Virus record (IMG/VR): IMGVR_UViG_3300031455_000002
From: an uncultured virus (IMG/VR IMGVR_UViG_3300031455_000002)
Lineage: Duplodnaviria > Heunggongvirae > Uroviricota > Caudoviricetes
Length of the DNA stretch: 64,000 nucleotides
Reading direction: 5' to 3' (one strand)
Shown here: piece by piece, positions 34,609 to 49,972 of the stretch
Layout: the number at the start of each line of letters is the position of its first letter
Numbering within the stretch: position 1 is the first letter of the stretch
Notes under the pieces: generated by a model
The model's database searches: none
The model's input: the letters and a program-made list of their open reading frames with translations, nothing else
What the model was told of the DNA's origin: nothing
Position numbers and translations under genes: made by a program

Positions 34609-35148
34609 ATGTCTGAGTTCGTCGGCCGCACGGGATCGCACCGCGTCTACTCTTACCCGGAGGCGAGACGCGGTGGCGGCGTTCTGTCTCTTGCGCGGAA
34701 CTTCGCATACGGTCCCGCCGAAACGGAAACCCGGATTACGACGGACGGGACAGATGTGCCATGGGGTCTCATCGAAAGCGGGGAGGCCCCTGGGGTTTTG
34801 GTGCCGATCACACCAAGACTCAGCGGAATCGTTCGAGTCAGCGGTGTCATCACGATCGTGAACAACGACGACGCCAGACAGGACGTGCAACTTCAAGTTG
34901 GTGCATCAAACGGCGTGGATCCGCCTACTTTCTTTCCTCCTACTCAAGAGTTGAACTCAATCGCTGAAGATTTGGGTGAAGAGCCTGGACACGAAGCTAT
35001 TCCGTTCACGGCTCTCGTAACAGGTGCCGATGTCGGTATCCTTTTTTACATCCTGATCCGTTTGACAGCGAACGAGAACGACGCGCTGTCTCTTCTCGTC
35101 AATTCTTCGACGATCGATCTGCAAGAGGTTCCGCCCGCCACAGGGTGA
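34609..35148 (+). CDS. Fibre/spike-family protein 1
   Basis: MSEFVGRTGSHRVYSYP + LARNF beta domain. Confidence 0.7.
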   Translation: MSEFVGRTGSHRVYSYPEARRGGGVLSLARNFAYGPAETETRITTDGTDVPWGLIESGEAPGVLVPITPRLSGIVRVSGVITIVNNDDARQDVQLQVGASNGVDPPTFFPPTQELNSIAEDLGEEPGHEAIPFTALVTGADVGILFYILIRLTANENDALSLLVNSSTIDLQEVPPATG

Positions 35149-35159
35149 AAGGTACGGTC

Positions 35160-35654
35160 ATGGGTAGTTTCAGAGTCGGTCGCAAGTTCGCTTCACACGC
35201 CTACCCGGAGCCTCACCGTGGTGGAGGCGGTCCTGCGCCGCTTCTGGCGCGTGTCTTCGCAACCACGGAGGAAGACACATCGACCCCGGTCCCTACTGGA
35301 GATCCTGTTCTGATCCCGTGGGACGGAATCGGGGATGAAATACCTGTGACGCCGCTATCGACCGGCGTGCTCGAGGTTTCCGGAGTCGTTGTCCTCGAGA
35401 ACGAGAGCGAGACGGACACGTACATCATCACGGTCTTCGTGCTGATCGATGGCAACCCAATGGATCCTCCGACTAGCTCTCAGATGAGCATTCCTCCGGA
35501 ATCTACGATTTCGATTCCGTATCTGGCTCAAAGTGAAGCTCTTACTCCAGATACTCCAGTAGACGTATCGGTCGCTGTCATCTCGGACACGGATCCAGAA
35601 GGAGACGTCGACATCGTCAGCGCCACCGTCGCGATCCAAGAAGTGGCGGCCTGA
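35160..35654 (+). CDS. Fibre/spike-family protein 2
   Basis: MGSFRVGRKFASHAYP; paralog of protein 1 (VTP..G...VSGV, QEV). Confidence 0.7.
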   Translation: MGSFRVGRKFASHAYPEPHRGGGGPAPLLARVFATTEEDTSTPVPTGDPVLIPWDGIGDEIPVTPLSTGVLEVSGVVVLENESETDTYIITVFVLIDGNPMDPPTSSQMSIPPESTISIPYLAQSEALTPDTPVDVSVAVISDTDPEGDVDIVSATVAIQEVAA

Positions 35655-35657
35655 ACC

Positions 35658-35918
35658 ATGCGTGTCGTAATCCCGGAATCAGAGCTCGAGCGCCTGAAGT
35701 CGTGCGGTGACCACCTCACGTCTCCGTGGTGGGATGAGGGCGAACGTTCTCTCGTCTACCCTGACTGGGATGAGGCTGCTGCGAAGATGTCATTGAGTCG
35801 AGACGGTGCGCGCCGCCTGAAGTGGCTCGTACTCCACAAGATGGTCCCGACGACGTTGACACGGTACATGGAGCTGCGTCAGCAAGCCGCCAAGGCGACG
35901 GAGAAGACCGATGGGTGA
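35658..35918 (+). CDS. Hypothetical protein
   Basis: In operon. Confidence 0.55.
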   Translation: MRVVIPESELERLKSCGDHLTSPWWDEGERSLVYPDWDEAAAKMSLSRDGARRLKWLVLHKMVPTTLTRYMELRQQAAKATEKTDG

Positions 35919-36417
35919 GTTCAGGATAGGGCGTACTCACGCGCAACACTTCTATCCAGTACGGCGATTGGGCGGTGGTGACACCCCGGATCTCGCTCGC
36001 AATTTCGCTTCGACGTCTATGTTGAAGGACAATGAGTTCAGTAATGAACCTGTTTTCATCCAGTGGTCGTCTATCGGAACAGATCCGCCATACCCGACTG
36101 AGGTACCTATCACTCCTCTGTTCTCCGGTGTCATCGAGATTTCCGGAGTCTTGAACATCGACAACGAAGGCGTGGATCCGTATCACGTAATCATTCGTGT
36201 ATACGTGAACGAGATTGAAGTACCTGTGACGATGGGTTCTCAGACCACAATCGCCGGTGGATCACTCATCTCAATCCCGTTTCTTGCGCAAGTAGGCGGG
36301 CTGGATCTCGACGAAGAAGCTCTGGTGACCGTGTCTGTTGAGACGGCAGAAGCTCAAGAAGGTACATCCTACAACAGCGCGCAGATGGCTGTGCAGGAAG
36401 TCGTTCCGAACCCTTGA
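35911..36417 (+). CDS. Fibre/spike-family protein 3
   Basis: MGEFRIGRTHAQHFYP; paralog of proteins 1 and 2. Confidence 0.7.
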   Translation: MGEFRIGRTHAQHFYPVRRLGGGDTPDLARNFASTSMLKDNEFSNEPVFIQWSSIGTDPPYPTEVPITPLFSGVIEISGVLNIDNEGVDPYHVIIRVYVNEIEVPVTMGSQTTIAGGSLISIPFLAQVGGLDLDEEALVTVSVETAEAQEGTSYNSAQMAVQEVVPNP

Positions 36418-36614
36418 TGGAGATCACCATGGAACGCCGTAAGATCCACGAAGAAACTCTCCAGTGCGGTTACCGCAAATGCTGTCCGACCGTGAAGATC
36501 TTCGACGACGGCTCGATGGAGCTCTCCGACGACGACCCCGAGATCGGTTCCGTAGGCACGATCAAGCTCTGGCCTGAGGTCGTTCAGCGACTCCTCGAGC
36601 TGGCGAAGAAGTAG
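36414..36614 (+). CDS. Small Cys-containing protein
   Basis: CGYRKCCPTV. Confidence 0.55.
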   Translation: MMEITMERRKIHEETLQCGYRKCCPTVKIFDDGSMELSDDDPEIGSVGTIKLWPEVVQRLLELAKK

Positions 36615-36625
36615 GAAGAACCACC

Positions 36626-37852
36626 ATGAGCCACCTAATTGGACGCGGGCAGTACAAGAGTGAGACGTATCCAGGGCGTGGAGCGTCCGGCGGTAGCGGC
36701 GGCTCGATCGTGCCTCTATCGAGGCAGCGATTCATCGACGGTGGAACCGTGCAGTCCGGGCGAGACGGATCGGTTGCGCGACCGTTTCTCACGATCGCTG
36801 AGTTCACTGCATCGCGACCGAACGGCACCGTCCCGGACAGGCGGAACAACTACGTCGGGTGGGTCACGCCAGCGATCGACGGATACACGGGGGTGATCAG
36901 CCTCCCACCGAATGCTTCAACGGAGCTGCGAGCTGATTCGTACTCGAACCCCACCCTTGGCACGTCTGTCACCGGAAACGTGTTCTGGTCCAATCTAGCG
37001 TTACCCGAGACCACGGGACCTGTTACCGCCGCATTGCACAACGTGTCTGTAGTGGGGCAGGTTCAGATCACCGACGTAGCCGAGTCTCCTATCTCGCAGT
37101 TCTTCTTCAGCGCCGACGAGTCTCTCTTCTTGGGAGCGATCTTATCTGGTGGTTTCGTCTCGAATACGACCGTGCAGTTGTCGTTTGCTTCCTTCCTCAA
37201 CGTGAGCGTGGACAACTCGATCGATGCGGGCACTTCTGTAGACAGCGCGGCCGTACTACTTCAAGGAAGCAATGTCATAGGAGGTATCGCAGCCAGACAG
37301 TTGAACTGCTACAACTCCGTACTGGCCGTAGCAACCATCGAGGCGCGCGAAGCGACGTTCGTAGATACGAGTTTCGAGTCGGGAACCAATCCTTTACTGA
37401 TGGTCGTCATTGCCCCTCCAATTTTCGACGGACCCTCCTGGGCGTCGTTCATCCGAGCTGGCGGGACACGAAGCGCTGCGACCGCAGTCCTGGTCACTGG
37501 TGGGTACAACGGAGCAGAAGTTGCGGGAGCGGCGTTGACTGCGGCTTCTACGAGCGTCGCACTCAATGGGGCAGGAGCGACGGCCGGTTTCACGGGATCA
37601 AATTCCGGGAACCACTACTCGACGGCGGACGTCACACCGACCAGCGTCACTCTTTTGACGGCTGGGGCACTCCCAGGAGACACATTACTCATCACCAGGA
37701 CCGACCTCGTGGCAAGCGTGCTCGCGGTGATCAACGGCGGCCCTGGTGCCGGCACGATAGGATCGATCCCTACTTCTCATCGCGGGTCCGTGCTCGCTCG
37801 ATTCAACGGAACGGACTGGTTGTTCGAAGCGGGAGGATCACTCGCTGCCTGA
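36626..37852 (+). CDS. Fibre/spike-family protein 4 (beta-helix-like)
   Basis: MSHLIGRGQYKSETYP; DGSVARPFLTI motif. Confidence 0.7.
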   Translation: MSHLIGRGQYKSETYPGRGASGGSGGSIVPLSRQRFIDGGTVQSGRDGSVARPFLTIAEFTASRPNGTVPDRRNNYVGWVTPAIDGYTGVISLPPNASTELRADSYSNPTLGTSVTGNVFWSNLALPETTGPVTAALHNVSVVGQVQITDVAESPISQFFFSADESLFLGAILSGGFVSNTTVQLSFASFLNVSVDNSIDAGTSVDSAAVLLQGSNVIGGIAARQLNCYNSVLAVATIEAREATFVDTSFESGTNPLLMVVIAPPIFDGPSWASFIRAGGTRSAATAVLVTGGYNGAEVAGAALTAASTSVALNGAGATAGFTGSNSGNHYSTADVTPTSVTLLTAGALPGDTLLITRTDLVASVLAVINGGPGAGTIGSIPTSHRGSVLARFNGTDWLFEAGGSLAA

Positions 37853-37866
37853 TTTCGACTAACTAC

Positions 37867-38139
37867 ATGTCGCACTTGTTCCTCATCACTGCCCTCATCG
37901 GCGCAACGCTCCTCATCGTTCGAGGAACGATTCTCGCTCCAGTGCGCAAGCTCTGGCCTGCGCTCTTCGGGTGCGCCCAGTGCGTCGGGACGTGGGTCGG
38001 AGTCGCCGCAGGTGCCAGCAGCATCGTCTCGGTTGGTCACGGACGGATCCTAGACGCCGTGATCGTTGGTGCCGCCACGAGCTTTCTATCTCTGCTCGCT
38101 GATGGTGTACTATTGAAGCTCCTGGGGGATCCTTCATGA
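37867..38139 (+). CDS. DUF1360-like membrane protein
   Basis: LFGCAQCVGTWVG; hydrophobic. Confidence 0.6.
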   Translation: MSHLFLITALIGATLLIVRGTILAPVRKLWPALFGCAQCVGTWVGVAAGASSIVSVGHGRILDAVIVGAATSFLSLLADGVLLKLLGDPS

Positions 38140-38663
38140 GCTATCTCATCGGCAGAGGGCCTCGAGCCAGCCAGACCTACCCGAGTCGCGCGGCCACGGG
38201 CGCGGTCGGTCCGCAGGGACCCGCTGGCCCTCAAGGAACGACCGGGGCGACGGGCACACAACTGGCCCCCAAGGATCGACTGGATTGACGGGCCCCCAGG
38301 GGCCTCAGGGCCCCACCGGAGAGAACAATGTCGTGTTCGAACACCACTACGATAGCCAGTGCGGCCATAACGGTGGCCGCCGGATCTAGGATCAAGATCG
38401 AAGGAAGCATCTCTGTCAGAGAGCAGGATGCCGACTGCGACGCAGTGCTGGCGATCACTGGGATGGTGAACGTCGGGGCCGTGATATATCTCGGGCTCGC
38501 CGATTTCGGATCGCTGTCGTTCACGCACGTCACCGCCCCGCAAGCCGGAGGACAGGTTACGGTCGACATGACGATCAGCGCACTCGGTGCCGGGGCTTCA
38601 CTTATAGGCCCTGTGTCACCCGGCATGACGACACTCGTTCTGACGGAGATCCCAGCCCCATGA
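38136..38663 (+). pseudogene. Fibre-family collagen gene 5, broken by two frameshifts
   Basis: MSYLIGRGPRASQTYP + GPQ repeats; collagen resumes in another frame at ~38262, and the C-terminal beta domain in a third frame at ~38340. Confidence 0.7.
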
Positions 38664-38743
38664 CCTCGGGAACGTTCCCTATCTGTACTCACCCTCACGG
38701 AGATCCTGCCGTGACATTGTTTTCGTAAAGAAAGAGAGAAGCC

Positions 38744-39937
38744 ATGAGCCAGATCATCGGAAGAGGGAGGTACGCGCGCGAGACATACCCGCAGAGAAGC
38801 GTCCAGGACAACAGCGAGCTCGATATTCTCGTAGCGATCCTCGAGCACAACGTGCAGCTCCAGGGAGAGCCGTTACAGGTCAACGCGAGCACACTTGTGC
38901 TCGACTCGCCTCTTTACACACTGCTCCCCGGCGTTGTTCTTTTCCCCGGTTCACCGACCGTGAAGGTGACCGGCAGCATCACACTGGAAGGCGATACGGA
39001 TGATATCATCTCATTCACTTTGGTACGTGATCGCGGAACTCCTGAAGAAGTCGTTCTGACCACGCAAGGTAGCAGACTAGGTACTGACGAAGACGATTTG
39101 GCTTTGACTGCCACTCTGGTGTCTTTGGACGTCAACCTCGTCGAGGGATCGACACACGTATGGTCGATAGTGGCAACTTCTCTTGGCGCAAAGGATATCG
39201 CTCCTACAGCGTTTCCAGCACTCATCCTGGTCGAGCAGAAGCCATCAGGAACCTCCGTCAGTATCCCGACGCCTCCGACGGCTACGGTCGATCTGCTCAC
39301 GGCCGGCAACTTCGCCGCGTTCGGTGGAAGCGGGATCACGACCACCGGCGGCTCGACCATCGACGGCAATATCGGTGTCAGCCCGGCGGTCACATCCACT
39401 GCGATCACCGGCTTCGATCTTGTTCTTGATGGGGACGGCGAGTTCGCTACATCCACCCAGGTGACAGGACAGGTATTCGCATTCAACTACGCGAACCTGA
39501 CACCTGCTCTGGTCAATCAGGCAACCCTGGACATGATCACTGCGTACAACGACGCAGCAGGACGGCCCGCAGACGTCACCGCAGCCGGCGGAGACATCAG
39601 TGGCCCTCTCGCAACGGATGCGGTGTACCGGTACACCGGCGCGTCCAGTGTTCTGGCGGCACCGCTCGTACTGGACGGCGGAGGCCCCGGTGGCGTCATC
39701 ATCATCCAGGTGGCGGGCGCCCTCAACATCCAGAACGACATCCTTCTCGCGGACGGGCAGCTCGCTTCGAACGTGTTCATCGTCACGGCCGGTCAGGTCA
39801 CTATCGCCCCCGGCGTGACGGTCAACGCGAACATCCTGAGCCAGACCGGTATCGCTATGCAGGCCGGCGCGGTGCTCAACGGACGAGCTCTCGCACAGAC
39901 GGCAGTCACGCTCATCAACAACACGATCAACCCCTGA
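38744..39937 (+). CDS. Fibre-family protein 6 with ice-binding (DUF3494) domain
   Basis: MSQIIGRGRYARETYP; VDLLTAGNFA...IDGNIGVSP...AITGF...DMITAYNDAAGR...GRALAQTAVTL. Confidence 0.88.
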   Translation: MSQIIGRGRYARETYPQRSVQDNSELDILVAILEHNVQLQGEPLQVNASTLVLDSPLYTLLPGVVLFPGSPTVKVTGSITLEGDTDDIISFTLVRDRGTPEEVVLTTQGSRLGTDEDDLALTATLVSLDVNLVEGSTHVWSIVATSLGAKDIAPTAFPALILVEQKPSGTSVSIPTPPTATVDLLTAGNFAAFGGSGITTTGGSTIDGNIGVSPAVTSTAITGFDLVLDGDGEFATSTQVTGQVFAFNYANLTPALVNQATLDMITAYNDAAGRPADVTAAGGDISGPLATDAVYRYTGASSVLAAPLVLDGGGPGGVIIIQVAGALNIQNDILLADGQLASNVFIVTAGQVTIAPGVTVNANILSQTGIAMQAGAVLNGRALAQTAVTLINNTINP

Positions 39938-39950
39938 TGAGGCCTCCCAC

Positions 39951-40160
39951 ATGCGCCGCAAATTGACCACTCTCAAAGCCAAGTCCGGTCACTCCGAGAA
40001 CGGCGCTCCTCGCCAGCTCATCGACGAAGCGCTCTACCTCGAGCGCCGACGAGTCGCCACCAACCCGTACTCCACCGTGTTCTCGGGATGGAGCAACGCG
40101 ACCAGGCCGCGTGACTCAGCAATCAGTCTGCGTCGGACGGTCGAAGTCGAGCCTGGATAG
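39951..40160 (+). CDS. Hypothetical protein (possibly truncated)
   Basis: GAGG RBS; short ORF. Confidence 0.4.
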   Translation: MRRKLTTLKAKSGHSENGAPRQLIDEALYLERRRVATNPYSTVFSGWSNATRPRDSAISLRRTVEVEPG

Positions 40161-40226
40161 CCTGCGTTTCCGCAGGTTTGCACACCTCCTCTTCGCATCC
40201 ACCGGGAAATACGGTAGATTTCCCAC

Positions 40227-40601
40227 ATGACCGAAGCCCGTCTCTACCTCGAGTCGCTCTGGATCGGTCTGCCTTGGCTGCTCCTCACCGTAGGCATTTT
40301 CGGCACCGTGTACGGCTCGAGGAAGCATGTCCCGCAGGCATGGGTGTGGTTCGACAACGTCTCGCCCGACGGCAATCTTCGCCACCTCGTGCAGGGGCTC
40401 CCCTCGGTCGCCGCAGGCGCGTTCATTGGGGCTCTCCTGACCAACGACTGGACGGAGTACCGCGGTATCCTGTCCGGCGCAGCGGCCCCTGTTGCGCACC
40501 TGATCTTGAAGGCGCTCCCGATCCGGTACCAGGGCGCTGTGCGCGCTGTGGTGAAGCGCGTCGGGCTCATCGCCCTAATTCTGTTCATCGAGGTTTCATG
40601 A
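40227..40601 (+). CDS. Membrane protein (holin-like)
   Basis: Three to four hydrophobic segments. Confidence 0.55.
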   Translation: MTEARLYLESLWIGLPWLLLTVGIFGTVYGSRKHVPQAWVWFDNVSPDGNLRHLVQGLPSVAAGAFIGALLTNDWTEYRGILSGAAAPVAHLILKALPIRYQGAVRAVVKRVGLIALILFIEVS

Positions 40602-40750
40602 GCCACATCATCGGTAGAGGTCGTTACCAGAGTGAGACGTACGGGATGACGCCGGCCGCGCTGCTCACGCTCTGGAAGGCGCAGTGCCTGATCCGGGTTG
40701 CTGCGGCGGAGCAGGAGAGCGTTGGAGCTATCAGCGGAGCCGGCGAATGA
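40598..40750 (+). pseudogene. Fibre-family remnant 7
   Basis: MSHIIGRGRYQSETYG; only 50 aa. Confidence 0.6.
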
Positions 40751-40947
40751 AAGATCCGATGCTCCAGTTTTTCACGTGGGCGCATTTACCCCCGCGCCTC
40801 CAGGAAGTCTCGCGGCCGTTCGGTGAGCTCGCTGAGAAGATCGTCGACACGCTCCCGAGAAACCCAGAACGCACCGCGGCACTCAGGAAGCTTCTCGAGG
40901 CAAAGGACTGCGCGGTGCGCGCACTGCTCTACAAGGATTCCGAGTGA
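40747..40947 (+). CDS. Conserved small helical phage protein
   Basis: LQFFTWAHLP...SRPFGELA...PERTAALRKLLEAKDCAVRA. Confidence 0.8.
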   Translation: MKDPMLQFFTWAHLPPRLQEVSRPFGELAEKIVDTLPRNPERTAALRKLLEAKDCAVRALLYKDSE

Positions 40948-41747
40948 AGTTCCTCGATCGCCTCCGAGGCTTCTCGAACCGTGGCACAGGCTGGGTCGAT
41001 GGCCTGTACCCGACGGTGGAGCGCATCGCTCTGTCCGATCGTCTCGTCGCGGCGTCCTCGAGCACGCGCGTACGTCCCGACGAGGGTGGCTGCACACGTC
41101 CCCTCTGGGTGACGGATCAGGGCTCCGAAGAGAGCTGCACAGACCACGCGGGGACCGGCTGCGCGTACGAGCTCACCGGCTTCAAAGGTGTACCTGGCGT
41201 CGCGTGGTGGTTCGGTCGCGCTTTCGATCTCGGGTTCGGTGAGACGCCGCCAAAATACACCGTGCTACCCAACGTAGGCGTGTCGATGCATGGGTTCTGT
41301 CGAGCGCTCGAGAAGCACGGCATCACGACCGAAGGGACGTGGGGGCCAGGGAAGCCGAATTACCCGCACCGGATCCCTCCGGGGCTCGCCAGGCTCTCGG
41401 CGCAGCGACTCAACCTGGAGCTCCAACCGATCTACGCGGTCGGGCGTGCAGCGGTCGATGCACTGCTCGATCATCTGCTCACGGAGCGCCCTGCAATCCT
41501 CGTAGTGCGCGCCGACTCAGCTTACCGCCACCCGAATGCGAATGGGGTAGTCGGCCCCGCGTCGGGCTCCGGAGGACTCCACGCGGTCCGTGTGCGCCGA
41601 TACCGCCGGGTGTCCGATGGGAGCTACCAGTTCCTCTCTCCAGGCTCCTGGGGACCCTTCTTCGGCATCCAGGGGGAGGTCTGGCTCGACGAGTCGCGCG
41701 TCTCGCACGCGCCGGCTGCAATCAACCTGGCGATGAAGGTGTCTTGA
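40944..41747 (+). CDS. Papain-like (C1) cysteine peptidase
   Basis: DQGSEESCT (Gln, Cys), GLHAV (His), GSWG..FGIQG.VWL. Confidence 0.75.
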   Translation: MKFLDRLRGFSNRGTGWVDGLYPTVERIALSDRLVAASSSTRVRPDEGGCTRPLWVTDQGSEESCTDHAGTGCAYELTGFKGVPGVAWWFGRAFDLGFGETPPKYTVLPNVGVSMHGFCRALEKHGITTEGTWGPGKPNYPHRIPPGLARLSAQRLNLELQPIYAVGRAAVDALLDHLLTERPAILVVRADSAYRHPNANGVVGPASGSGGLHAVRVRRYRRVSDGSYQFLSPGSWGPFFGIQGEVWLDESRVSHAPAAINLAMKVS

Positions 41748-42001
41748 TGCTGCGCTATTTGCTGGCTCTGTGGTTGGTTTCCTGCGGTCCGCCGCCTGTC
41801 GTGGTCGTTCCGGACGGCCCGGGGGATTGCACCAGCGCGTGCGCGAACCTCGAGCGGCTCGGCGGGTGCGGGATCGATCTGACGAACTGCGAAGGGCTGT
41901 GCCGCGACGCGGAGCAGGCTGAGGCGGAGCTCGGGGTGACGTTCCCGGTCGGGTGTTTCTCGGCGTCGCAGAGCTGCGATGAAGCGGGAGGGTGCTCGTA
42001 A
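41747..42001 (+). CDS. Cys-rich lipoprotein
   Basis: Lipobox [12 protein letters not shown]...C. Confidence 0.7.
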
Positions 42002-42576
42002 TGCCTGTTTGTCCGGGTGGTGGAGGGGAACCGGGGCCGCAGGGGCCTCAGGGTCCGCAAGGGCCGGCAGGGCCACAGGGGCCTCAAGGGCCGCAAGGTG
42101 CGGTCGGGCCGCAGGGGCCTCAAGGGCCGCAAGGTGCGGTCGGGCCGCAGGGGCCTCAGGGTCCGGTCGGGCCGCAGGGGCCACAAGGGGAATCAGGATT
42201 CCCGACTATCGCACAATGGGGATTCCAAGCCGCTCCGGCAGCAGACGCTGATAGATATATTCCGTCAAATTTTGGAGCGGTAATTACACCTGGTGCGGCA
42301 GCGGCCGGTAATACACTAGTTAGTAAGAGCGGGACTATTCGTCAGATAGCTGTATTCGTGAATAGTGCATTAGTCTCTAACGCTATAACGTTTACGGTAA
42401 GAATCAATGGCGTCGATTCGGCAATAACGGTAACAGTTCCGCCAATGACTAATAGTGTAAATGTAACTGGACTTGCTGTTGCCGTAGTAATTGGGGATGT
42501 ACTAACCGTGAAAGTGCGCCAAAACGGTACTGAAGTAAACAGCCTTTTGAGCGCAAGAGTGTCAATTTCAGGTTAA
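42001..42576 (+). CDS. Collagen-like fibre protein
   Basis: About 18 G-X-Y (mostly GPQ) triplets plus a beta-rich head. Confidence 0.85.
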
Positions 42577-42578
42577 TC

Positions 42579-42905: not shown

Positions 42906-42986
42906 AGAAGCCCCGCGCGAGAGTGAAACAATGGAGTTCAAGCATTACAAGTCGGACTCGACTACGATTATTTCCGCTACCTCAGC

Positions 42987-43087
42987 GTGCATAGACATGG
43001 TACCGTAGATACATCTATGCCCTACATCATCGGAAAACGCAGCTACGCCACCGAGACGTACCCCGTGGGGCCGCGTGGTGGCGGCGG
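42987..43087 (+). repeat. 101-bp direct repeat, copy 1 (copy 2 at 43941-44041)
   Basis: Two mismatches; covers 30 nt upstream and the first ~24 codons of two fibre genes. Confidence 0.9.
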
Positions 43088-43616
43088 CGGGGGCGTCCTG
43101 CAATGGGGTTTCGATCAGACGCTCAAGGGTCAGGACGGCGTGCTCTCGCTGTCGCGGCTGCGGCGGGACTTCGACGGCAACCCGATCCGGGTGCGACTGA
43201 CGAACCTCACCCCCGGCAACGGCCTGCGCGTGCTGTGGACCGGGAATTTCGAGAATGATGCGCTCGAAGAGTTCAATTCGATCAGCGTGATTCCGATCGT
43301 GTCCTTCGCCCCGGTGCCGGAGCCGGCTTTCCCCGCTGACTATGGGCTGCTCATCATGGCCGGCGACTACGAGCCGTTTCTCAGCGGCGAGCAAGACGAC
43401 TACCGCACGCTCGCCGGGCTTGGTGTGAGCATCATTCCCGACGGCGTCACGCAGGCCACGATCGAGCTCATGGGGCAGTCCAACGCCTCGGTGAGGTACG
43501 GAATTACCTTCGTCATGCGCGGCGTGCAGCTCGAGGCATCAGAGCTCGCTGCGTCCATCCTCGCACCCACGGCGTATCCGGACGATCCAGGCTGGAGCGA
43601 AGTCGTCCCCATCTAG
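43017..43616 (+). CDS. Fibre-family protein 8
   Basis: [16 protein letters not shown] + beta domain. Confidence 0.75.
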   Translation: MPYIIGKRSYATETYPVGPRGGGGGGVLQWGFDQTLKGQDGVLSLSRLRRDFDGNPIRVRLTNLTPGNGLRVLWTGNFENDALEEFNSISVIPIVSFAPVPEPAFPADYGLLIMAGDYEPFLSGEQDDYRTLAGLGVSIIPDGVTQATIELMGQSNASVRYGITFVMRGVQLEASELAASILAPTAYPDDPGWSEVVPI

Positions 43617-43631
43617 GAAAGGAAACTCCCG

Positions 43632-43886: not shown

Positions 43887-43970
43887 GGTAGTCGCTGCCT
43901 GCACCGGTACGAACGTGGAGCTTCTCGGCGCCGAGATGATGTGCATAGACATGGTACCGTAGATACATCT

Positions 43971-44624
43971 ATGCCCTACATCATCGGAAAACGCAGCTAC
44001 GCCACCGAGACGTACCCCTCGGGGCCGCGTGGTGGCGGCGGTGGGCCCGGTCCGCCAGGGCCTCAAGGGCCGCAAGGGGACACGGGGGCCGCAGGCCCTC
44101 AAGGGGCGCCGGGGGCCCAGGGGCCTCAGGGCAATGCCGGCGTGGCGGGCTCTCAAGGCCCCCAAGGAACCAGTGGCCCCCAAGGCCCGCAGGGCAACAT
44201 CGGCGCCCAGGGGCCCCAAGGAGACGCCGGAGCGACGGGCCCCCAAGGACCCCAGGGGAACGACGGCGCAGCGGGTCCTCAGGGCGCTCAGGGGGCACAA
44301 GGGGCACAGGGGCCAGAGGGGCCCGTCTCCCTGACAACCGTCGGGAGCGGCTCCACGAACGTACAGGGCTTCGGCTCCGTCACCCTTGGGCCCTTCACGC
44401 GGGCGGCGACGAGTGAGCGGCCCTGGGCCTGGTGCTACCCAAGGACGACGGGCGGAGGCGATGACTGGTTCCCGCACAACGATTCAGACGTACAAGGCGC
44501 ATTCGCGTGGGTGCTCCTGAACAATGCCGAGGCCGATCCGTCCCTGGAGTTCAGCATGCGGATCTGGAACAATACAGGGAGCGACTCGATCGTCGATTGG
44601 TCCGTGCTGGGATACACGCCATGA
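43971..44624 (+). CDS. Fibre-family collagen protein 9
   Basis: [16 protein letters not shown] + ~31 G-X-Y triplets + head domain. Confidence 0.85.
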
Positions 44625-44827
44625 TCTGCGACAACTGCCAGAAAGTGATCCCCCCGGGAGCATTTCGCACACGCCGGACGCAATGGTCCGACCGCGCGAG
44701 CCAAAAACGGGCACAAGCGACGCTGGGGAGGACCCGGGTGTTCGATGCATCCGAAGCGGCATCGGACGAGACGTTGTGCGAGACATGCCTCCCGAAAACA
44801 GCGCCGGTCACTAGGCACACTCCGTAG
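44621..44827 (+). CDS. Zn-ribbon protein
   Basis: MICDNCQK...LCETC. Confidence 0.55.
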
Positions 44828-44837
44828 GAATAAGACC

Positions 44838-45013
44838 ATGACCAAAGTGATCGGCAGAGGCAGGTACGCGACCCGGGCTCACCCGCGGACAGCCGGCGGG
44901 AGCTTGGCTACTCCAGGGATGAACGTCTCTCTCTCTCTCTCCGCGTGACCGAGCTCCTCGCTTCGGCCGTATCGCAGGCGGGCCCGGGCGCGCTGTCCCC
45001 GCTGGTTCCGTAG
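44838..45013 (+). pseudogene. Fibre-family remnant 10 containing a (TC)8 tract
   Basis: MTKVIGRGRYAT; losing one TC gives ...SLRVTELLASAVSQAGPG...*, similar to the C-terminus of protein 8. Confidence 0.55.
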
Positions 45014-45072
45014 CCATATCGCCCGGTTATCTCCCGTAGCGTTGACCGCGCCTGCGGTGGTATCCTCCCGGG

Positions 45073-46737
45073 ATGCACGATCGATCGCCGGGCGCAGCCC
45101 CCTTCGCCTCCAGAATGCGCCCTATGGTCGACGAGCGGCTTTTGTCCGGCGTCGGCCAGCTCGATCCGGAAGCGTGGGCGGAACAGCAAGTCGGTTTGCA
45201 GAAAGTGCGCGAAGATCGGGCCAAGCATCAATTTGGCCCTGACAAGTGGGCTGAGTTCGAACGGCGAGCTCCTGGACGCCGCGTTACTCGCGAGAACTAT
45301 CAAGAGCGTTTCGTGCTGCTAGATCAAATGGGCTACAAGCCCAGCACCCGCAGTCAAGGCTTTCATCTTTTCGATTCTGCCGGTAGCACTGTCAAGAAGG
45401 TCGGTAAGGCGGCCATCAAGCTCGGAGGAGACATCATCACGGCCCCAACCAAGGGTCTCGCCGCACTCACGAAGAACATCCCCGTACTCGGCGACGTGAC
45501 CCGCATCGTGGACAACGTTGCGTCTGGTCCCGCGAATCTCGCGAACTCGATCGCGTCTGGAGCACGTCTTGATCAAGCTGCGCTCAAGCACCTCAAGTCA
45601 GAGCTCAAGAACATCAAGGACGCAGCGCCGTACGCGCAGATGGTCGTGTCGGTCGTCCCTGGTGTCGGCACTGGAGTAGCTGCTGCGATCGGTGCAGGCG
45701 CTGCGCTCGCCGAGGGCAAGAGCATCGACGACATCGCGAAGGCAGTCATCCGAAGCTCGTTGCCGGGAGGTGCGCTTGCAGCGTCAGCGTATGACACAGC
45801 GCTCAAGGTCGCTGCCGGAGGCAACGTGGCGCAAGCCACGCTCGAAGCCGCCCGTGCGCAGTTGCCAAAAGCGGCTCGTCATGCGTTCGACATCGGTCTC
45901 GCCGTCGTAACCGGAGAGAACATCCAGAACGCGCTTGCCGATGGATTTACCAATCTGACCCAAGAGAAACTCAGTGAAATCGTCAAGGGTGGCGCTGGCG
46001 CTTTGGTGAAGAGCCAGTTTCTAGTGAAGACGCTGGGGGCGCTACCTAAAGGAGGAGACACGAAGCGAGGTTTCCTTACAGCTATCGGGTTGTTAGGCCA
46101 GACAGGCATCAATGCAAAGGCTCTCGCTGCTGTACGTCACAAGCTGTCGGAGGTCGAGCGAACAGGATTCGATGCTGCACTGAGATCCCAACAGGGCGAA
46201 GTCGCATGGCTCGCGGATGTCCCGAACATGCCGCCTCCTAGTCGACGTACTCCTGCTCTGACTGCAATAGCGGCTGCTCTGACTGCAATAGCGGCCCCGG
46301 CGCGCAAGCCACCTGCGATGACCCCTATCCCTGCTGCCGTGAGGACCCCACCGGCGATGAAAGCGGCCCCGGCGCGCAAGCCACCTGCGATGACCCCTAT
46401 CCCTGCTGCCGTGAGGAAGCCTCCGGCAATGAAAGCAATCGCCCCCAAGGCGCCCTCGAGCCCCGCTGCGTCGGCCGCTCGAAGCCTGTACGGCCCCTAC
46501 CCGCAGCCCCCAGCCTCCGGCGTCGGAGCGTGGTCAAGCGACGCCTGGCGCTGGTTCACGCTTCACGACCGCGGCACTCCGCTGGTGCAGCGCGGACCCG
46601 TCTGGCTCTCCGACAACGCAGCTTTCCAGGAAGAGGCTGAGCTCATCGAGTCAGCACAGCGGCACGGCCGTATCGCCAACGTCGCGAGGTGGGACTGGGA
46701 TGCCGACGCACGTCGCTGGCAGCAAGCGCTGGGGTAA
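45073..46737 (+). CDS. Large Ala-rich helical virion/membrane protein
   Basis: VPGVGTGVAAAIGAGAALA segment; ARKPPAMTPIPAAVR repeats; LSGVG and SGVG motifs. Confidence 0.7.
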   Translation: MHDRSPGAAPFASRMRPMVDERLLSGVGQLDPEAWAEQQVGLQKVREDRAKHQFGPDKWAEFERRAPGRRVTRENYQERFVLLDQMGYKPSTRSQGFHLFDSAGSTVKKVGKAAIKLGGDIITAPTKGLAALTKNIPVLGDVTRIVDNVASGPANLANSIASGARLDQAALKHLKSELKNIKDAAPYAQMVVSVVPGVGTGVAAAIGAGAALAEGKSIDDIAKAVIRSSLPGGALAASAYDTALKVAAGGNVAQATLEAARAQLPKAARHAFDIGLAVVTGENIQNALADGFTNLTQEKLSEIVKGGAGALVKSQFLVKTLGALPKGGDTKRGFLTAIGLLGQTGINAKALAAVRHKLSEVERTGFDAALRSQQGEVAWLADVPNMPPPSRRTPALTAIAAALTAIAAPARKPPAMTPIPAAVRTPPAMKAAPARKPPAMTPIPAAVRKPPAMKAIAPKAPSSPAASAARSLYGPYPQPPASGVGAWSSDAWRWFTLHDRGTPLVQRGPVWLSDNAAFQEEAELIESAQRHGRIANVARWDWDADARRWQQALG

Positions 46738-46740
46738 CAG

Positions 46741-47406
46741 GTGGCCTTCGCAGCGGTCATCCCGTGGGCGCAGCGCGGAGCCGCTACCTACCTCCCCCCG
46801 GCGCAGCTCGCCGAGGGGCTCGTCGCGACCTGGAAGGAGCTGACTGGAGGACTGCCTTACCGTGAGGTCGCCGAGCTCCTTCTGGCCCAAGTGCTGATTG
46901 AGACCAATTGGAGCCGCTCCATGTGGCGATACAACTGGGGAAACATCACGGCAGGTAGCTCGTGGACGGGCGCTATCTGGAGGCCCTCGTGGTACGAGCT
47001 CACACCAGAGTCGAGCGCTCGTGACCTTGATTTGAACGCGAAGATGCTCGTCGGGAAAGCGCCGAAAGCGTTTCGCGCCTACTCATCGCACCAGGAGGGC
47101 GCTGCGGACTACGTGCGGCTCTTGCTTCGTCAGTTTCGACCAATGGTGGTCGCCGCCGAGACCGGAGATCCCGTCGCATTCTCAGAAGCCGTTCGCACCT
47201 CGAGTTACTGTCCTGATTGCGGTAGTGAAAAGTTCGTTCGATCGATCCGATCTCTTCAATCCCAGATCCGTGCCGGAGGGTGGCTGTCCTATCTACCGAG
47301 CGCCAGAAGTGGATCGTCGTGGGTACTTCCTGCGCTTGGGGCTGCGGTGCTCGGAGGGGCTGCTGCGGCCGGAGCGGTCTTGCTGATCAGGGCGACTGAG
47401 CGATGA
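46741..47406 (+). CDS. GH73/FlgJ-like muramidase with C-terminal TM anchor
   Basis: LAQVLIETNW...YNWGNI...FRAYSS.QEGAADYVRLL; TM tail. Confidence 0.75.
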   Translation: MAFAAVIPWAQRGAATYLPPAQLAEGLVATWKELTGGLPYREVAELLLAQVLIETNWSRSMWRYNWGNITAGSSWTGAIWRPSWYELTPESSARDLDLNAKMLVGKAPKAFRAYSSHQEGAADYVRLLLRQFRPMVVAAETGDPVAFSEAVRTSSYCPDCGSEKFVRSIRSLQSQIRAGGWLSYLPSARSGSSWVLPALGAAVLGGAAAAGAVLLIRATER

Positions 47407-47408
47407 GG

Positions 47409-47720: not shown

Positions 47721-47737
47721 GTTGTTACTCTGCTTTT

Positions 47738-48016: not shown

Positions 48017-48023
48017 CGTAGCT

Positions 48024-48060
48024 ATATTAGCCTGAATTACGAGTAACGTCAAGCGTAATT
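48024..48060 (-). promoter_or_regulatory. higBA promoter/operator
   Basis: TTGACG-N17-TAATAT, overlapped by the inverted repeat AATTACG-N12-CGTAATT. Confidence 0.7.
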
Positions 48061-48251
48061 TTTCCCCAGGAATCCCCGATGCTTCGCCGCCTGATCTGTT
48101 ACCTGCTCGGGCATCTGCTCTGGACACCGTTCGACACGGTGTGCGCGCGGTGCGGTCGAGTGGTTGTGCCATCGAGAATAGATCCAGAGGAAGACGTGGA
48201 CACGATCGTGGATTGCCCTCACCCACACCAAAGAGACGAAAAAGAGTGACG

Positions 48252-48602
48252 ATGTACAACCGAGAAGCAAGAAAACGGAAACAGAAACCAGAAGCCAGAG
48301 AGTGGCTCGAGAACAACGAAAACGAATATGCGTTTGCGTCGAACCATTTCGGGTCAACTGACGAAGCGTTAGTTTTCGTGGACAACTTGTACAGCGCCGG
48401 AGCCAAATACGTCGCTGTGTCGGATGTGTACGATGACGCGGGCCGCATCTCTGAAGAAGGAGGACCGTACTCTGCCACGTTGGAGGTAACGATCCCGAAC
48501 AACGCCGATGTGGCCCTGGTGGTCATGGTGGTAGTGGCCTCTGGTCACCCAGATGAGATTGACGTGATCAAGGATCTGACGGTCCGTCTCTGGTGGGACT
48601 AA
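48252..48602 (+). CDS. Hypothetical protein ending in WWD
   Basis: Basic leader, acidic body; coupled to the next gene. Confidence 0.6.
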   Translation: MYNREARKRKQKPEAREWLENNENEYAFASNHFGSTDEALVFVDNLYSAGAKYVAVSDVYDDAGRISEEGGPYSATLEVTIPNNADVALVVMVVVASGHPDEIDVIKDLTVRLWWD

Positions 48603-49027
48603 TGTCTGACTACACCTACCTGATCCCTCACAAGCTCGCCCAGGGGAGCGCACCGCCTCCAGGCGTCGCTCTACCCTTCGACACCATTGTGCTCGCGGCA
48701 CGTGAGTACCAACCTGATCTCCCAGGGTACGAAGTGATCCGGGTGCCACTCTCCGACGAAGGGCCTCCGCCGACCCCTGAAGAGCAGGAGCTGATCCGCA
48801 TCAACTCGAGCCGCATCGTCCGGCGTCTCCTGGCCGGCAGACGCGTCCTGGTGACCTGCTGGCGGGGACGCAACCGTTCTGGGGTCCTGGCGGGGCGCGC
48901 CCTCGTCGAGCTGGGAAACGAGCCTGGACGAGTGGTCGAGACGATCAGAAGACTTCGGAACGGCCTAACCAACCTCTACTTCGCTGATATGGTGTTGAAT
49001 CATGGCGCACAAAGACAGTCTGCCTGA
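48602..49027 (+). CDS. Dual-specificity protein phosphatase
   Basis: PLSD...VLVTCWRGRNRSG (CX5R). Confidence 0.85.
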   Translation: MSDYTYLIPHKLAQGSAPPPGVALPFDTIVLAAREYQPDLPGYEVIRVPLSDEGPPPTPEEQELIRINSSRIVRRLLAGRRVLVTCWRGRNRSGVLAGRALVELGNEPGRVVETIRRLRNGLTNLYFADMVLNHGAQRQSA

Positions 49028-49160
49028 GTGGTTTCCGTTCGCGCTCGTCGCGTCTGGTCTCGTCATGATCGCGGCGGGCGCCAAGTCAGGATGGAAACTC
49101 GGCGGGAAAAAGGAAGCTTCGACTCAGCCTCCGCCGGTCGATAGGGCGGCATTCCCATGA
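49002..49160 (+). CDS. Small single-TM protein (absent from the ORF track)
   Basis: WFPFALVASGLVMIAAG; ends RAAFP; stop overlaps the next ATG. Confidence 0.55.
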   Translation: MAHKDSLPEWFPFALVASGLVMIAAGAKSGWKLGGKKEASTQPPPVDRAAFP

Positions 49161-49972
49161 CCAAAGTAATCGGCAGAGGTAGATACGCGACAGAAACCTA
49201 TCCCAGTAAAAGTGGAGGTATCCCTGTCCCGACGACAAACACCAACAACTGGTGCTGGATCTATTCAGGCACCTCTGTCCCGCTGAGTGAGCAAACCGGC
49301 GCAGAAGATCGCCCGTTTTCTACTCTAGCAGCGGCGCTCGCTGCCGGATTCATCCAGTTCTACATCTCCGACTCCGCAGGAGACGTGACACTGACGGCTC
49401 TGTACTATCAATTTCAATCGGTCACAGGCCGCGCAGTGCTCCAGAACATCCAACTGACGGGCGCACAATCGGTGTTTCTGGAAGGTTGCATCGCACGTAA
49501 CTGGTCGTGGGCACCGGAGGCTACGCAGTTTGCAGGCGTGCACCTCACCGGAGGCCCGTACTCGCCTCCGTTTGCTCCAGCGTCGGCCGACGTCGTCGAC
49601 ATCGTACTTCCTGGCGCTCTGGTGACCATCGAAGGATGGGGGATCTCGGGAGACCTGGTGTGCGATCGCCTGGCGCTCGTAGGTAGCTCACTCAACGCCG
49701 CAGCGGTGGAGTACGATTCCGGCGCACAGTTCCTGAACTGCAACTTTCATTCGGAGGTCACCTGCGTAGGAAGTGCCCCCGGCCAGTGGGTGTCATGCGT
49801 ATGGCGGAACACGATGACGATCCAGGTTCCGCTCGGCTCAGTGGTGACGTCTGAAACGTTGGCGGCCATCACTTGGACCAATGCTTCTCCAATTGAGCTG
49901 GACGCCTACAGCGACGCCCGTATGACCGCAGCGAGCGCGACTTTTAGCGGGGGCTCTACTGTGATAGGGTAA
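49157..49972 (+). CDS. Fibre-family protein 11
   Basis: MTKVIGRGRYATETYP; TGAEDRPFSTL; beta-helix-like. Confidence 0.75.
   Translation: MTKVIGRGRYATETYPSKSGGIPVPTTNTNNWCWIYSGTSVPLSEQTGAEDRPFSTLAAALAAGFIQFYISDSAGDVTLTALYYQFQSVTGRAVLQNIQLTGAQSVFLEGCIARNWSWAPEATQFAGVHLTGGPYSPPFAPASADVVDIVLPGALVTIEGWGISGDLVCDRLALVGSSLNAAAVEYDSGAQFLNCNFHSEVTCVGSAPGQWVSCVWRNTMTIQVPLGSVVTSETLAAITWTNASPIELDAYSDARMTAASATFSGGSTVIG

Follow-up and report, generated by a model that had tools for sequence, protein, structure and literature searches.

One N-terminal peptide shared by diverse payload proteins of an undescribed virus family: a candidate tag for virion docking

Why do eleven neighbouring genes of one virus begin with the same short peptide and continue into different proteins? 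The genes are found in a window of 64,000 nucleotides, the whole stretch of DNA analysed here, which is part of an 89-kb contig from an uncultivated soil virus. A first-pass annotation had proposed that the peptide docks a repertoire of adhesins onto one capsid or vertex site. Its family is undescribed; the members measure 80-125 kb and have bacterial-type features (an endolysin, a tmRNA, and LysM and peptidoglycan-binding proteins). The window is not a typical prophage: it comes from this family, and tailed-phage structural genes were not recognised.

The tagged genes

Eleven plus-strand open reading frames between 34609 and 49972 have N-termini that fit M-x-x-[ILVF]-[IV]-G-[RK]-x5-6-Y-P; all of them were re-read identically to the first-pass annotation. 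They constitute one co-oriented block directly downstream of conserved particle-module genes (Table 1). Eight are intact and three are broken.

Table 1. Tagged genes, neighbouring genes and the duplicated cassette in the window.
Feature	Coordinates	Strand	Remarks
438-aa hallmark protein	28597..29913	+	candidate shell protein, candidate socket
199-aa and 295-aa proteins	30000..31889	+	adjoin hallmark gene; further candidate shell proteins or sockets
Type A protein, 179 aa	34609..35148	+	tag MSEFVGRTGSHRVYSYP, GGG linker, TNF/C1q-like knob
Type A paralogue, 164 aa	35160..35654	+	tag MGSFRVGRKFASHAYP
Four small conserved ORFs among tagged genes	35658..40160	+	35658-35918, 36414-36614 (66 aa, Cys-rich), 37867-38139 (90 aa, hydrophobic), 39951-40160; 11 to 20 matches each (BLASTP, ORFs of L001-L030)
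Type A paralogue, 168 aa	35911..36417	+	tag MGEFRIGRTHAQHFYP
Type B protein, 408 aa	36626..37852	+	tag, Gly/Ser linker, PLSRQRFIDG... body
Broken type B gene	38136..38663	+	tag, collagen repeats, C-terminal domain; two frameshifts
Type B protein, 397 aa	38744..39937	+	Ice_binding (DUF3494) solenoid, residues 194-396
Orphan tag	40598..40750	+	16 intact tag codons ending YG, then unrelated sequence
Tag-less collagen-like protein	42001..42576	+	Pfam Collagen 35 bits; N-terminus set beside that of 43971
120-nt 5' cassette	42987..43106	+	30 nt upstream, tag, Gly linker; repeat family D7
Type B protein, 199 aa	43017..43616	+	orthologue in G003 at 50690
Type B collagen protein, 217 aa	43971..44624	+	Pfam Collagen 52.6 bits; C-terminal domain
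Orphan tag remnant	44838..44948	+	12 tag codons; repeat family D5
Type B protein, 271 aa	49157..49972	+	P0042

A six-frame search of the window with the regular expression [ILVFR][IV]G[RK]x5-9Y[PG] returned 11 matches, ten of them immediately after an ATG on the plus strand. The match at 14184 is an internal off-target, and the copy at 44838 is too truncated to be detected. Block-shuffled windows (n = 200) gave 0.7 matches on average (maximum 4) and 0.015 matches behind Met (maximum 1).

Two forms of the tag are present. The canonical type-B tag, M-x-x-[IVL]-I-G-R-G-R-Y-A-x-E-T-Y-P, is on eight of the genes. The variant type-A tag, MxEF[VR][IV]GR...YP, is on 34609, 35160 and 35911, full-length paralogues from one family ("type A", about 165-180 aa). 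The HMM of the type-B tag gives the type-A tags about 1 bit, which is the background level; aligned within the type A family, the type-A tag is in register with the canonical tag.

Of 148 representatives, 145 have the motif beginning at residue 4; 13 residues carry 2.7-4.3 bits per position. The peptide is of polar and basic character and shows neither signal-peptide nor lipobox features. The 12 residues that follow are mainly Gly (28%), Ala (15%), Ser (14%) and Pro (11%) in the 148 representatives. A Gly-rich hinge, defined as at least three Gly within these 12 residues, is present in seven of the nine readable proteins, much as the first-pass annotation had it; it is absent from 38744 and weak in 49157. 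In the monomer model of the type A protein, residues 1-25, the tag region, show pLDDT of 52-55 and no fold, as would be expected for a peptide that folds upon binding.

Selection on the peptide

In 26 tags, the invariant residues are encoded by freely varying synonymous codons. The codon for G6 is GGC in 7, GGA in 8, GGT in 10 and GGG in 1, and R9 uses six codons. The DNA alignment of the tags shows 53% mean column identity and only 6 invariant columns. This codon freedom indicates that selection acts on the tag peptide. Conservation as a by-product of DNA, through a recombination site, a cassette-switching sequence or an early-codon translational signal, is largely refuted by the same data and is highly improbable, even though DNA identity reaches upstream of the ATG in two pairs (42987-43106/43941-44060 and 44836-44872/49155-49191) and orphan tags mark recombination scars. 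Moreover, neither inverted repeats nor an invertase were found flanking the tagged genes, and all tag copies are on the same strand.

Distribution of the tag

Among 1.84 billion representatives, the tag heads 265 protein clusters (E<=0.001), and 149 of the best 150 clusters are matched from residue 1-2 onward. Tagged representatives are 33 to 1476 aa long. The 48 tagged ORFs from the window and the loci L001-L030 fall into 17 BLASTP clusters. These results support the claim that many mutually unrelated payloads are fused to one peptide with protein-level conservation.

All eight IMG/VR contigs with an exact match to the tag-coding sequence carry the 438-aa hallmark protein. The motif was thus not found to be common in non-virion proteins, the observation named beforehand as refuting the docking proposal. 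In these sequences, the tag is widespread but specific to one virus family. Canonical tags are present in 6 of the 11 whole records searched, with 2-6 copies each, and weak in G009. In four related records (G006, G007, G008 and G010) the canonical tag was not found, and variant N-terminal motifs replace it. Two of these, G006 and G010, are complete, and G008 reaches 98% completeness, indicating that the tag is dispensable within the family; this counts against the docking reading.

The hallmark protein has 30 relatives in IMG/VR (46-74% identity) and no match in Pfam, PHROG or PDB. Its model is of low confidence, and the jelly-roll-like matches are at noise level. The 199-aa and 295-aa proteins are conserved in 30 of 30 loci; they have no PDB match and are unrelated to each other in hhalign.

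Payloads and cassette exchange

In keeping with the adhesins first proposed, the payloads include fibre- or adhesin-like parts: collagen stalks, a TNF/C1q-like knob and an ice-binding-like solenoid. A Pfam scan left 125 of 134 tagged representatives without any family, so an adhesin role is what we infer for most of them. Pfam confirmed the earlier collagen and DUF3494 (Ice_binding) labels. The payload of 38744 matches PF11999 at 157 bits and has an orthologue in L012; the collagen match of 38136 is weak. The beta-sandwich label agrees with a confident model for type A. The beta-helix label for 36626 and 49157 obtained no confirming result; 36626 belongs to a conserved family of ~410 aa with no match in Pfam, PDB or NCBIfam.

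The type A knob is placed directly after the tag, and elsewhere after a canonical tag and a collagen stalk (L007:18933-19748). Among its PDB matches are the tips of tail fibres or spikes from cyanophage A-1(L), phi812 and lactococcal phage 1358. Its best structural relatives in BFVD include uncultured Caudovirales proteins, some of them collagen-repeat or tail-fibre proteins.

The three broken genes, 38136, 40598 and 44838, had been identified correctly. The reading frame of 38136 runs in the order 0, 2, 0, and its C-terminal domain is legible up to 38663. Logan contigs, an independent assembly of the same reads, come from the one run that holds this DNA, a DNA run, and show 0 differences and 0 gaps against 38000-42105 and 44020-45200. 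The breaks recur in this assembly and are therefore not artefacts of one assembler. The DNA at 44836-44872 is 92% identical to 49155-49191, the start of 49157. The 120-nt cassette recurs at 43941-44060 with 92% identity before an unrelated payload, and contig depth is doubled at 43941-44018 in the Logan contigs. Canonical tags are also found on type A bodies (P0091, P0132, P0141 and P0154). Two orphan tags persist in the window. Exchange behind the tag and decay of cassettes are thus visible in the window, in line with the swappable payloads and turnover first suggested.

Candidate function of the tag

The best reading is that the tag docks proteins on the virion, which we consider slightly better than an even chance. 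The N-terminal peptide of ~16 residues would be a shared attachment plug for one conserved virion socket, fastening a variable repertoire of fibre or knob proteins, most of them trimeric. Behind the tag, each protein would continue through a flexible linker of Gly/Ala/Ser/Pro, or through a collagen triple-helix stalk, to a distal head, which may be a TNF/C1q-like knob, an ice-binding-like solenoid or, in many cases, a domain without recognised fold. Heads would swap through recombination just behind the tag. They would be swappable because the tag alone must fit the particle, and therefore one virus could carry at least eight different binding heads. Two solved systems, the adenovirus fibre tail and the Bacillus exosporium leader peptide, offer precedents for such a design.

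The tagged proteins are probably virion components and probably trimeric, and the tag is likely to bind non-covalently. The socket would be in the shell module, with the 438-, 199- and 295-aa proteins as candidates, along with the conserved small proteins of 66 and 90 aa. The particle would be tailless. Attachment may be to the capsid or a vertex rather than to a tail, as hinted by the lack of recognised tailed-phage genes, the noise-level jelly-roll matches of 28597 and a HerA-like ATPase in a relative. With such a plug, interchangeable host-binding fibres would hang on one common particle site.

The same plug could instead be on a tail. The virus would then be a tailed phage with head, tail and baseplate genes diverged beyond recognition, and the tag would fix multiple tail fibres or tailspikes to a baseplate or adaptor, much as multi-depolymerase phages do. 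Tail fibres of tailed phages are just as typical a setting for TNF/C1q knobs and collagen stalks, which counts against docking on the particle. The PDB and BFVD matches of the knob, the PHROG tail-fibre families matched by the collagen proteins and the phage-like replication genes (PolA, Dda-like helicase, and Sak4-like protein) also point to a tailed phage. Nevertheless, this is unlikely. The complete 85.6-kb relative G003 was searched with PHROGs for 93 of its 109 ORFs and with Pfam for 36; it yielded no family for a portal, HK97-type capsid, tail tube, sheath, baseplate or tape measure, and tail-labelled matches were limited to collagen repeats and a lysozyme domain. The sole packaging-type protein is HerA/FtsK-like rather than a terminase. 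The particle module has no ORF of tape-measure length, and contains a protamine-like membrane-anchored protein and several membrane proteins.

It is decidedly unlikely that the tag is a recognition or processing signal for a viral enzyme, leading to trimming or to covalent cross-linking to the particle. The register fixed from the first Met and the small-residue motif followed by basic residues would suit such a signal, and BclA attachment has reportedly been linked to sequence motifs and proteolytic cleavage, as a 2010 title by Tan and Turnbough has it. A maturation protease cutting near I-I-G-R is one candidate enzyme; however, the best-conserved half (GRYAxETYP) would survive a cut after residue 7 and still call for a docking role. 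The other candidate is the transglutaminase-like protein at 25890-26549, a core protein of the particle module that is 60-69% identical across most relatives. Its full-length Transglut_core match (E 0.039, profile positions 10-107 of 108) is weak and under the Pfam threshold, and the tag has no conserved Lys or Gln for a transglutaminase. The window also encodes a weak papain-like protein (ervatamin B, E 3e-4), but its gene belongs to an accessory stretch that has an orphan tag on one side and the tag-less collagen gene on the other. Finally, the tag could address proteins away from the virion surface, to an assembly site, an internal membrane or the infected-cell envelope, where payloads would act in the cell, for example in superinfection exclusion or cell aggregation. 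In favour of this, several neighbour genes encode membrane proteins or lipoproteins, and an R-V-P-F-G-x-G motif is seen here. This is improbable, considering the character of the tag and its Gly-rich linker, without signal-peptide or lipobox features, the location of the genes within the late particle module, and the collagen stalk with C1q-like knob, a surface-fibre design in all solved matches.

Comparison with known attachment systems

Modular receptor-binding proteins of tailed phages combine a conserved anchor domain at the N-terminus with C-terminal heads that can be exchanged. Their anchors are folded, roughly 100-300 residues long, and bind the baseplate or another fibre. The tagged proteins resemble them in the conserved N-terminus, exchangeable heads, several such proteins per genome and recombination at the domain boundary, but no such anchor family was detected here with Pfam and PHROG, and tail genes are unrecognisable.

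The spike P5 of PRD1/PR772 binds the particle through its N-terminal part and also has a collagen-like motif and, C-terminally, a trimeric knob (PMC6750898). It is likewise a bacterial-virus fibre, on a membrane-containing, tailless particle (PMC6750898). Its anchor is described as a folded domain of 124 residues that resembles the penton protein P31 by homology and forms part of the penton (PMC6750898), whereas the tag has ~16 residues and is predicted to have no fold of its own.

In the Bacillus exosporium, the leader peptide of collagen-like proteins is reported to sit on ExsF trimers (PMC12357932); the leaders of BclA and F-Anchor dock on the TNF-like trimer ExsF/BxpB (PMC12357932, PMC4674009). 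That is a spore system, whereas the tagged proteins are viral, and the NCBIfam/Pfam leader families gave no match to them. The TNF-like type A protein was ruled out as a general receptor because the complete G011 has five tagged genes and no type A gene.

The N-terminal tail of the adenovirus fibre (FNPVYPY) is described as occupying the cleft between penton-base monomers (PMC8156859). Both designs would share a short, conserved peptide at the N-terminus, the one part that has to fit the particle, as well as a trimeric fibre, a shaft and a distal knob. The sequences are unrelated to the tag, and the tagged family has a candidate socket only, with no penton base identified; the two are analogous in design, which does not imply membership. 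The adenovirus shaft is a beta-spiral, whereas that of the tagged proteins is collagen or a Gly linker. Fibre genes number one or two in adenoviruses; the tagged family reaches eleven per genome, and its payloads run to hundreds.

Conservation of the Tag as a Peptide

The first-pass annotation had listed eleven genes that begin with one shared peptide of ~16 aa (the tag), and translation reproduces each of these N-termini exactly. A six-frame search of the window with a regular expression recovered 10 of the eleven starts, all on the + strand and each immediately after ATG. The truncated tag at 44838 was missed, and a single internal off-target was found at position 14184. The pattern matched 11 times in total and 10 times after Met, while the means in 200 block-shuffles were 0.7 and 0.015.

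When the eleven starts are aligned as DNA, mean column identity is 53%, and six columns are invariant. Among 26 tags from the window and its relatives, the codons of the invariant residues are freely synonymous. For example, G6 is encoded by GGC (7), GGA (8), GGT (10), and GGG (1), and five codons are used at R7 and six at R9. The synonymous codons and the 53% DNA identity indicate that the tag is conserved as a peptide rather than as DNA. A DNA-level cause of the conservation is largely refuted by this codon usage and is very improbable.

The tagged genes fall into two types. The three type A genes are paralogous along their entire length and start with variant tags, MSEFVGRTGSxRVYSYP or MGEFRIGRxxAxHxYP, on which the HMM of the canonical tag scores ~1 bit, equal to background. 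The canonical tag is present on relatives of type A found in the census described below (P0091, P0132, P0141, and P0154), and MAFFT aligns all of them in register. The remaining eight genes, type B, carry the canonical tag.

Distribution of the Tag in Related Viruses

The hallmark protein, the 438-aa product of 28597..29913, has 30 relatives in IMG/VR (loci L001 to L030) with 46-74% identity. A strict regular expression, applied to the 10 kb on the downstream side of the hallmark gene, found 40 tagged ORFs in 16 of the 30 loci. Four matches (L001:3683, L015:20185, and window positions 14181 and 15747) were discarded as false. In whole related records, the tag HMM finds 2-6 copies in each of the five records G001 to G005 and 5 copies in G011. 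There is one weak match in G009 and no copy in G006, G007, G008, and G010. Variant start motifs are seen in records that lack the canonical tag: [IL][LT]G[IT]KNRSPxTYE in two proteins of L026, ITGRHGRFEAYP-type starts and MGTRITGRHGRFEAYP ahead of collagen in L029, and MGYLTNSKRKSPEVYP in L015. Several proteins of L010 have the motif R-x-V-x-F-G-x-G at their start.

The first-pass annotation had proposed to search viral metagenomes for the motif. A census with a first-40-residue profile against 1.84 billion cluster representatives yielded 265 clusters at E ≤ 0.001. The match starts at residue 1 or 2 in 149 of the best 150 clusters; only P0097, which is a repeat protein, departs from this. The logo of 148 representatives reads [IVL]-I-G-R-G-R-Y-A-R-E-T-Y-P with 2.7-4.3 bits per position, and the motif begins at residue 4 in 145 of them. 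The linker after the motif is rich in G (28%), followed by A at 15%, S at 14%, and P at 11%, and at least six consecutive G-X-Y triplets are present in 23 of the 149 tagged representatives. A degenerate exact DNA pattern for I-G-R-G-R-Y-A-x-E-T-Y-P occurs at 9 places in 8 of 2.9 million IMG/VR contigs. All eight contigs encode the hallmark protein: seven were already in the list of its relatives, and the eighth bears it as well (E 7e-239). A crude hydropathy scan was uninformative; hydrophobic 19-residue windows were seen in 20 of 149 tagged proteins, beta-strand-like and none of them N-terminal.

Payloads behind the Tag

The 48 tagged ORFs from the window and L001 to L030 form 17 BLASTP clusters. 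They include type A (17 members), a ~410-aa family and collagen (6 each), three families with 2-3 members, and ten singletons. The Pfam scan of 134 census representatives, which left out 16 of the 150 (thirteen short ones, P0035, P0040, and the false positive P0097), assigned Collagen to 6, Ice_binding to 2, and BclA_C, below cut-off, to 1; the other 125 show no match. In the window, PF01391 collagen (cut-off 27.2) scores 52.6 bits on 43971, 35 bits on the tag-less collagen gene at 41992, and 18.1 bits, under the cut-off, on 38136. Residues 194-396 of the 38744 product match PF11999 (DUF3494, ice-binding-like) with 157.2 bits against a cut-off of 28.7.

The structural model of the type A family is confident (pLDDT 86.6, pTM 0.78), with residues 1-25, the tag and linker, unstructured (pLDDT 52-55). 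The body is modeled as a TNF/C1q-like jelly roll, and its whole-domain structural match is well above noise. Foldseek gave 137 PDB matches at E ≤ 0.001, the top ones being a TNF, the BclA C-terminal domain, 4-1BBL, TRAIL, and CD40L. In BFVD there are at least 500 matches at E ≤ 0.001; proteins of uncultured phages with collagen repeats or a C1q domain and tail-fibre proteins are among those ranked highest. For the ~410-aa family, the PDB sequence search returned no match, and the 408-aa protein at 36626, used alone as query, found no relatives in viral contigs.

The order of these proteins is tag, hinge or stalk, and head. It is seen in L007:18933-19748, where the type A body stands at the end behind a canonical tag and a collagen stalk, and in a 1875-aa protein of L027, which has a divergent tag, ~700 residues of G-X-T collagen, and the ~410-aa body twice.

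Broken Members and Turnover

The first-pass annotation had called three of the eleven genes broken, and the claim holds for 38136, 40598, and 44838. Independently assembled contigs show 0 differences over 38000-42105 and 44020-45200, although they derive from the same single public run, possibly the source of the window. That run, the only public one containing the window DNA, is a DNA run; no RNA run is listed.

A stretch of 120 nt, spanning the tag with its Gly linker and 30 nt of upstream sequence, recurs with 92% identity, and the two copies precede unrelated payloads. The type A body bears both canonical and variant tags in different members of the family. Two orphan tags and one frameshifted gene are also present in the window. 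Together, these features indicate that the region directly behind the tag is a recurrent junction.

Tagged genes and other features of the window
Feature	Position	Strand	Remarks
Rhomboid protease	1235-1789	-	Also in G003
Response-regulator receiver domain	2885-3232	+	
578-aa protein	22422-24158	+	Mostly Pro/Gln-rich low-complexity repeats, recurring MFE[ML]FQKMQP units; N-terminus conserved in G003
219-aa core protein	25890-26549	+	60-69% identity in most relatives; full-length but weak Transglut_core match (E 0.039, below cut-off)
548-aa very basic protein	26835-28481	+	Long Arg/Lys-rich protamine-like middle, then hydrophobic segments; conserved immediately upstream of hallmark gene
438-aa hallmark protein	28597-29913	+	
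199- and 295-aa proteins	30000-31889	+	
Type A tagged genes	34609, 35160, 35911	+	Intact
Type B tagged genes	36626, 38744, 43017, 43971, 49157	+	Intact
Small conserved ORFs	36414-36614, 37867-38139, 39951-40160, 35658-35918	+	Kept across the family
Broken tagged gene	38136-38663	+	Tag, collagen repeats, frame to +2 and back, C-terminal domain still readable
Orphan tag	40598	+	16 tag codons, then unrelated sequence
Accessory block behind orphan tag 40598	40684-42001	+	Three genes: 87-aa phrog_1761 protein; 267-aa protein with weak papain-like peptidase similarity (ervatamin B, E 3e-4); 84-aa lipoprotein, lipobox LVSCG
Collagen gene	42001-42576		No tag
120-nt repeat	42987-43106 and 43941-44060		
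Orphan tag	44838	+	12 tag codons; DNA 92% identical to start of 49157
554-aa conserved protein	45073-46737	+	50% identity to a 626-aa G003 protein
Repeats in 554-aa gene	46253-46433		Exact 21-nt and 94%-identical 72-nt tandem, coding PARKPPAMTPIPAAVR-type units
Glucosaminidase-like protein	46741-47406		Directly after 554-aa gene
Integrase	53493-54608		
tmRNA gene	56625-56992	-	Full length, Rfam 78.2 bits, model 1-374/374

The Virus Family and Its Particle Module

The first impression of the window was a prophage beside a tmRNA gene. This reading was rejected in view of the 89,252-bp contig on which the window's own proteins sit, the 30 IMG/VR relatives, and the whole records of these relatives, which are 80-125 kb long and in several cases bear direct terminal repeats and are 100% complete by CheckV. 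Synteny with the complete record G003 also speaks against it, as the gene order is shared on either side of the integrase/tmRNA region. The genes of the 85.6-kb G003 include those for a split PolA with UDG, ThyX, kinases, deaminases, VapE, helicases, Dam, and an integrase, as well as a rhomboid protease, glycosyl- and methyltransferases, and lysozymes.

The conserved particle module is ordered as follows: LysM membrane protein, 219-aa protein, 548-aa protein, the 438-, 199-, and 295-aa proteins, two membrane proteins, and the tagged genes. The tagged genes are interspersed with the four small conserved ORFs, possibly assembly factors or sockets for the tag. The Cys-rich 66-aa protein from one of these ORFs shows 54-79% identity in 20 matches. 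Judged from their sequences, the 219-aa protein could be a protease or cross-linking enzyme of the module, and the 548-aa protein looks like a membrane-anchored DNA-condensing protein.

Neither Pfam nor PHROGs revealed terminase, portal, HK97-fold capsid, or tail families in the window or in G003 (36 ORFs of G003 for Pfam; 93 of 109 for PHROGs), a search that divergent members can escape. Tail-labelled matches in G003 are only collagen repeats and a lysozyme domain. Because the tail families are absent from these results and the module includes membrane proteins, a tailless, membrane-containing particle is a reasonable guess, but not a result. The family's candidate for a packaging ATPase, of the FtsK/HerA type known from membrane-containing, Varidnaviria-like viruses with jelly-roll capsids, is a 687-aa protein of G003 (54928-56991 on the - strand, corresponding to L035:14928-16991). 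It is HerA/FtsK-like at sub-threshold scores (NCBIfam HerA E 1.3e-6, below cut-off; PDB HerA E 0.002-0.2), a Walker A motif is seen by eye, and it partially matches a PHROG labelled terminase large subunit. There is no orthologue of it within the window.

Searches with the 438-aa protein gave no match among INPHARED phages, no PDB sequence match, and no BFVD structural match at E ≤ 0.001. For the vertical jelly-roll expected of a Varidnaviria-like major capsid protein, its low-confidence model gave structural matches at noise level. Its only real relative in 185,579 species genomes is on a 5.8-kb MAG contig. The PDB sequence search was also empty for the 199-aa and 295-aa families, which are unrelated to each other according to hhalign. 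ESM Atlas searches gave sub-threshold leads only. No description of the virus group or of the tag was found in the open-access papers searched.

Proposed Attachment of the Tagged Proteins

The best reading, towards which we lean, is that the tag is a common attachment plug for the fibre and head proteins. In precedents with solved structures, the carrier is contacted solely by the short N-terminal peptide of a trimeric fibre (PMC8156859; PMC12357932; PMC4674009). The N-terminal tail of the adenovirus fibre occupies a cleft of the penton base (PMC8156859), and the exosporium leader of collagen-like proteins docks on ExsF trimers, with three peptides per trimer (PMC12357932; PMC4674009). PRD1/PR772 P5, by contrast, is anchored through a folded base of 124 residues (PMC6750898).

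The adenovirus fibre is similar in having a short conserved N-terminal peptide, a shaft, and a knob, which correspond here to the tag, the collagen stalks, and the TNF-like knob. However, its motif is of the FNPVYPY type, different from the tag logo. The leader-collagen-C1q-like architecture of the exosporium system is also found here, but no known leader family was detected in NCBIfam (E ≤ 0.01; 10 tagged among 17 proteins scanned) or in Pfam. PRD1 P5 differs in that its folded N-terminal base is homologous to the penton protein, whereas the ~25 N-terminal residues here are unstructured in the model and the tag HMM has no match in the shell-module proteins.

Other explanations place the tag elsewhere or give it another role. 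The same plug might be mounted on a cryptic tail; the Pfam and PHROGs searches show no tail family, and a divergent one can escape them. This explanation is unlikely. It is slightly less likely that the tag is a processing or cross-linking signal, and the possibility that it is an address to a non-virion site is more doubtful still.

For a plug, the socket might be any of the universal proteins of 438, 199, and 295 aa or one of two small conserved proteins, of 66 aa (36414) and 90 aa (37867). The N-terminus of the 438-aa protein (M..SI[IV]GR...[FY]G in relatives) resembles the tag, but not significantly; the tag HMM gives it at most 3.8 bits, which does not exceed background N-termini. The type A protein was considered as a general tag receptor because its body resembles ExsF/BxpB as much as the BclA head. 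It was rejected as a general socket, since the gene is missing both in the complete record G011, with its 5 tagged genes, and in G004, which is 67% complete and tagged. Thus, unlike in the exosporium system, the TNF-like trimer is not an obligatory receptor here.

A wider and more tentative proposal, less probable than the plug itself, is that the tag and its socket serve for protein display in general, on the shell of large, tailless bacterial viruses that contain a membrane and form a new lineage. A nearly invariant 13-residue peptide would then suffice to mount any trimeric (or other) protein, each virion would be coated with a mixture of at least eight different binding heads, and head swaps behind the tag would let the lineage explore its host range. 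In a bolder variant, the conserved transglutaminase-like core protein would fix the tagged fibres covalently.

As a design, exchangeable heads on a conserved N-terminal anchor are already known. Distinctive here are the minimal and nearly invariant tag, the many tagged genes per genome with hundreds of payloads overall, and the carrier, an undescribed virus family. Should the tag be a plug, host recognition across this whole family would come down to one small portable interface, which would explain the carriage and exchange of so many different binding heads. The tag would also serve as a handle for receptor-binding proteins in metagenomes, where every ORF starting with it is a candidate, and such a minimal peptide might find use in protein display on particles. 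It also offers a concrete way into the structure of these viruses, in which none of the proteins for capsid, packaging, and entry can be recognised by sequence.

Other Observations

Residues 24-30 of the 438-aa protein (28660-28680) form another short motif, R-x-V-P-F-G-x-G, which is also present in the basic protein (27096-27120). A related motif, R-x-V-x-F-G-x-G, stands at the start of four or five proteins of the L010 subclade (L010:15058-19344). The complete G003 carries neither tmRNA nor tRNA. In the window, the tmRNA gene is embedded in viral gene order and adjoins the integrase gene, and its tag peptide is ANDNAIDQALAA.
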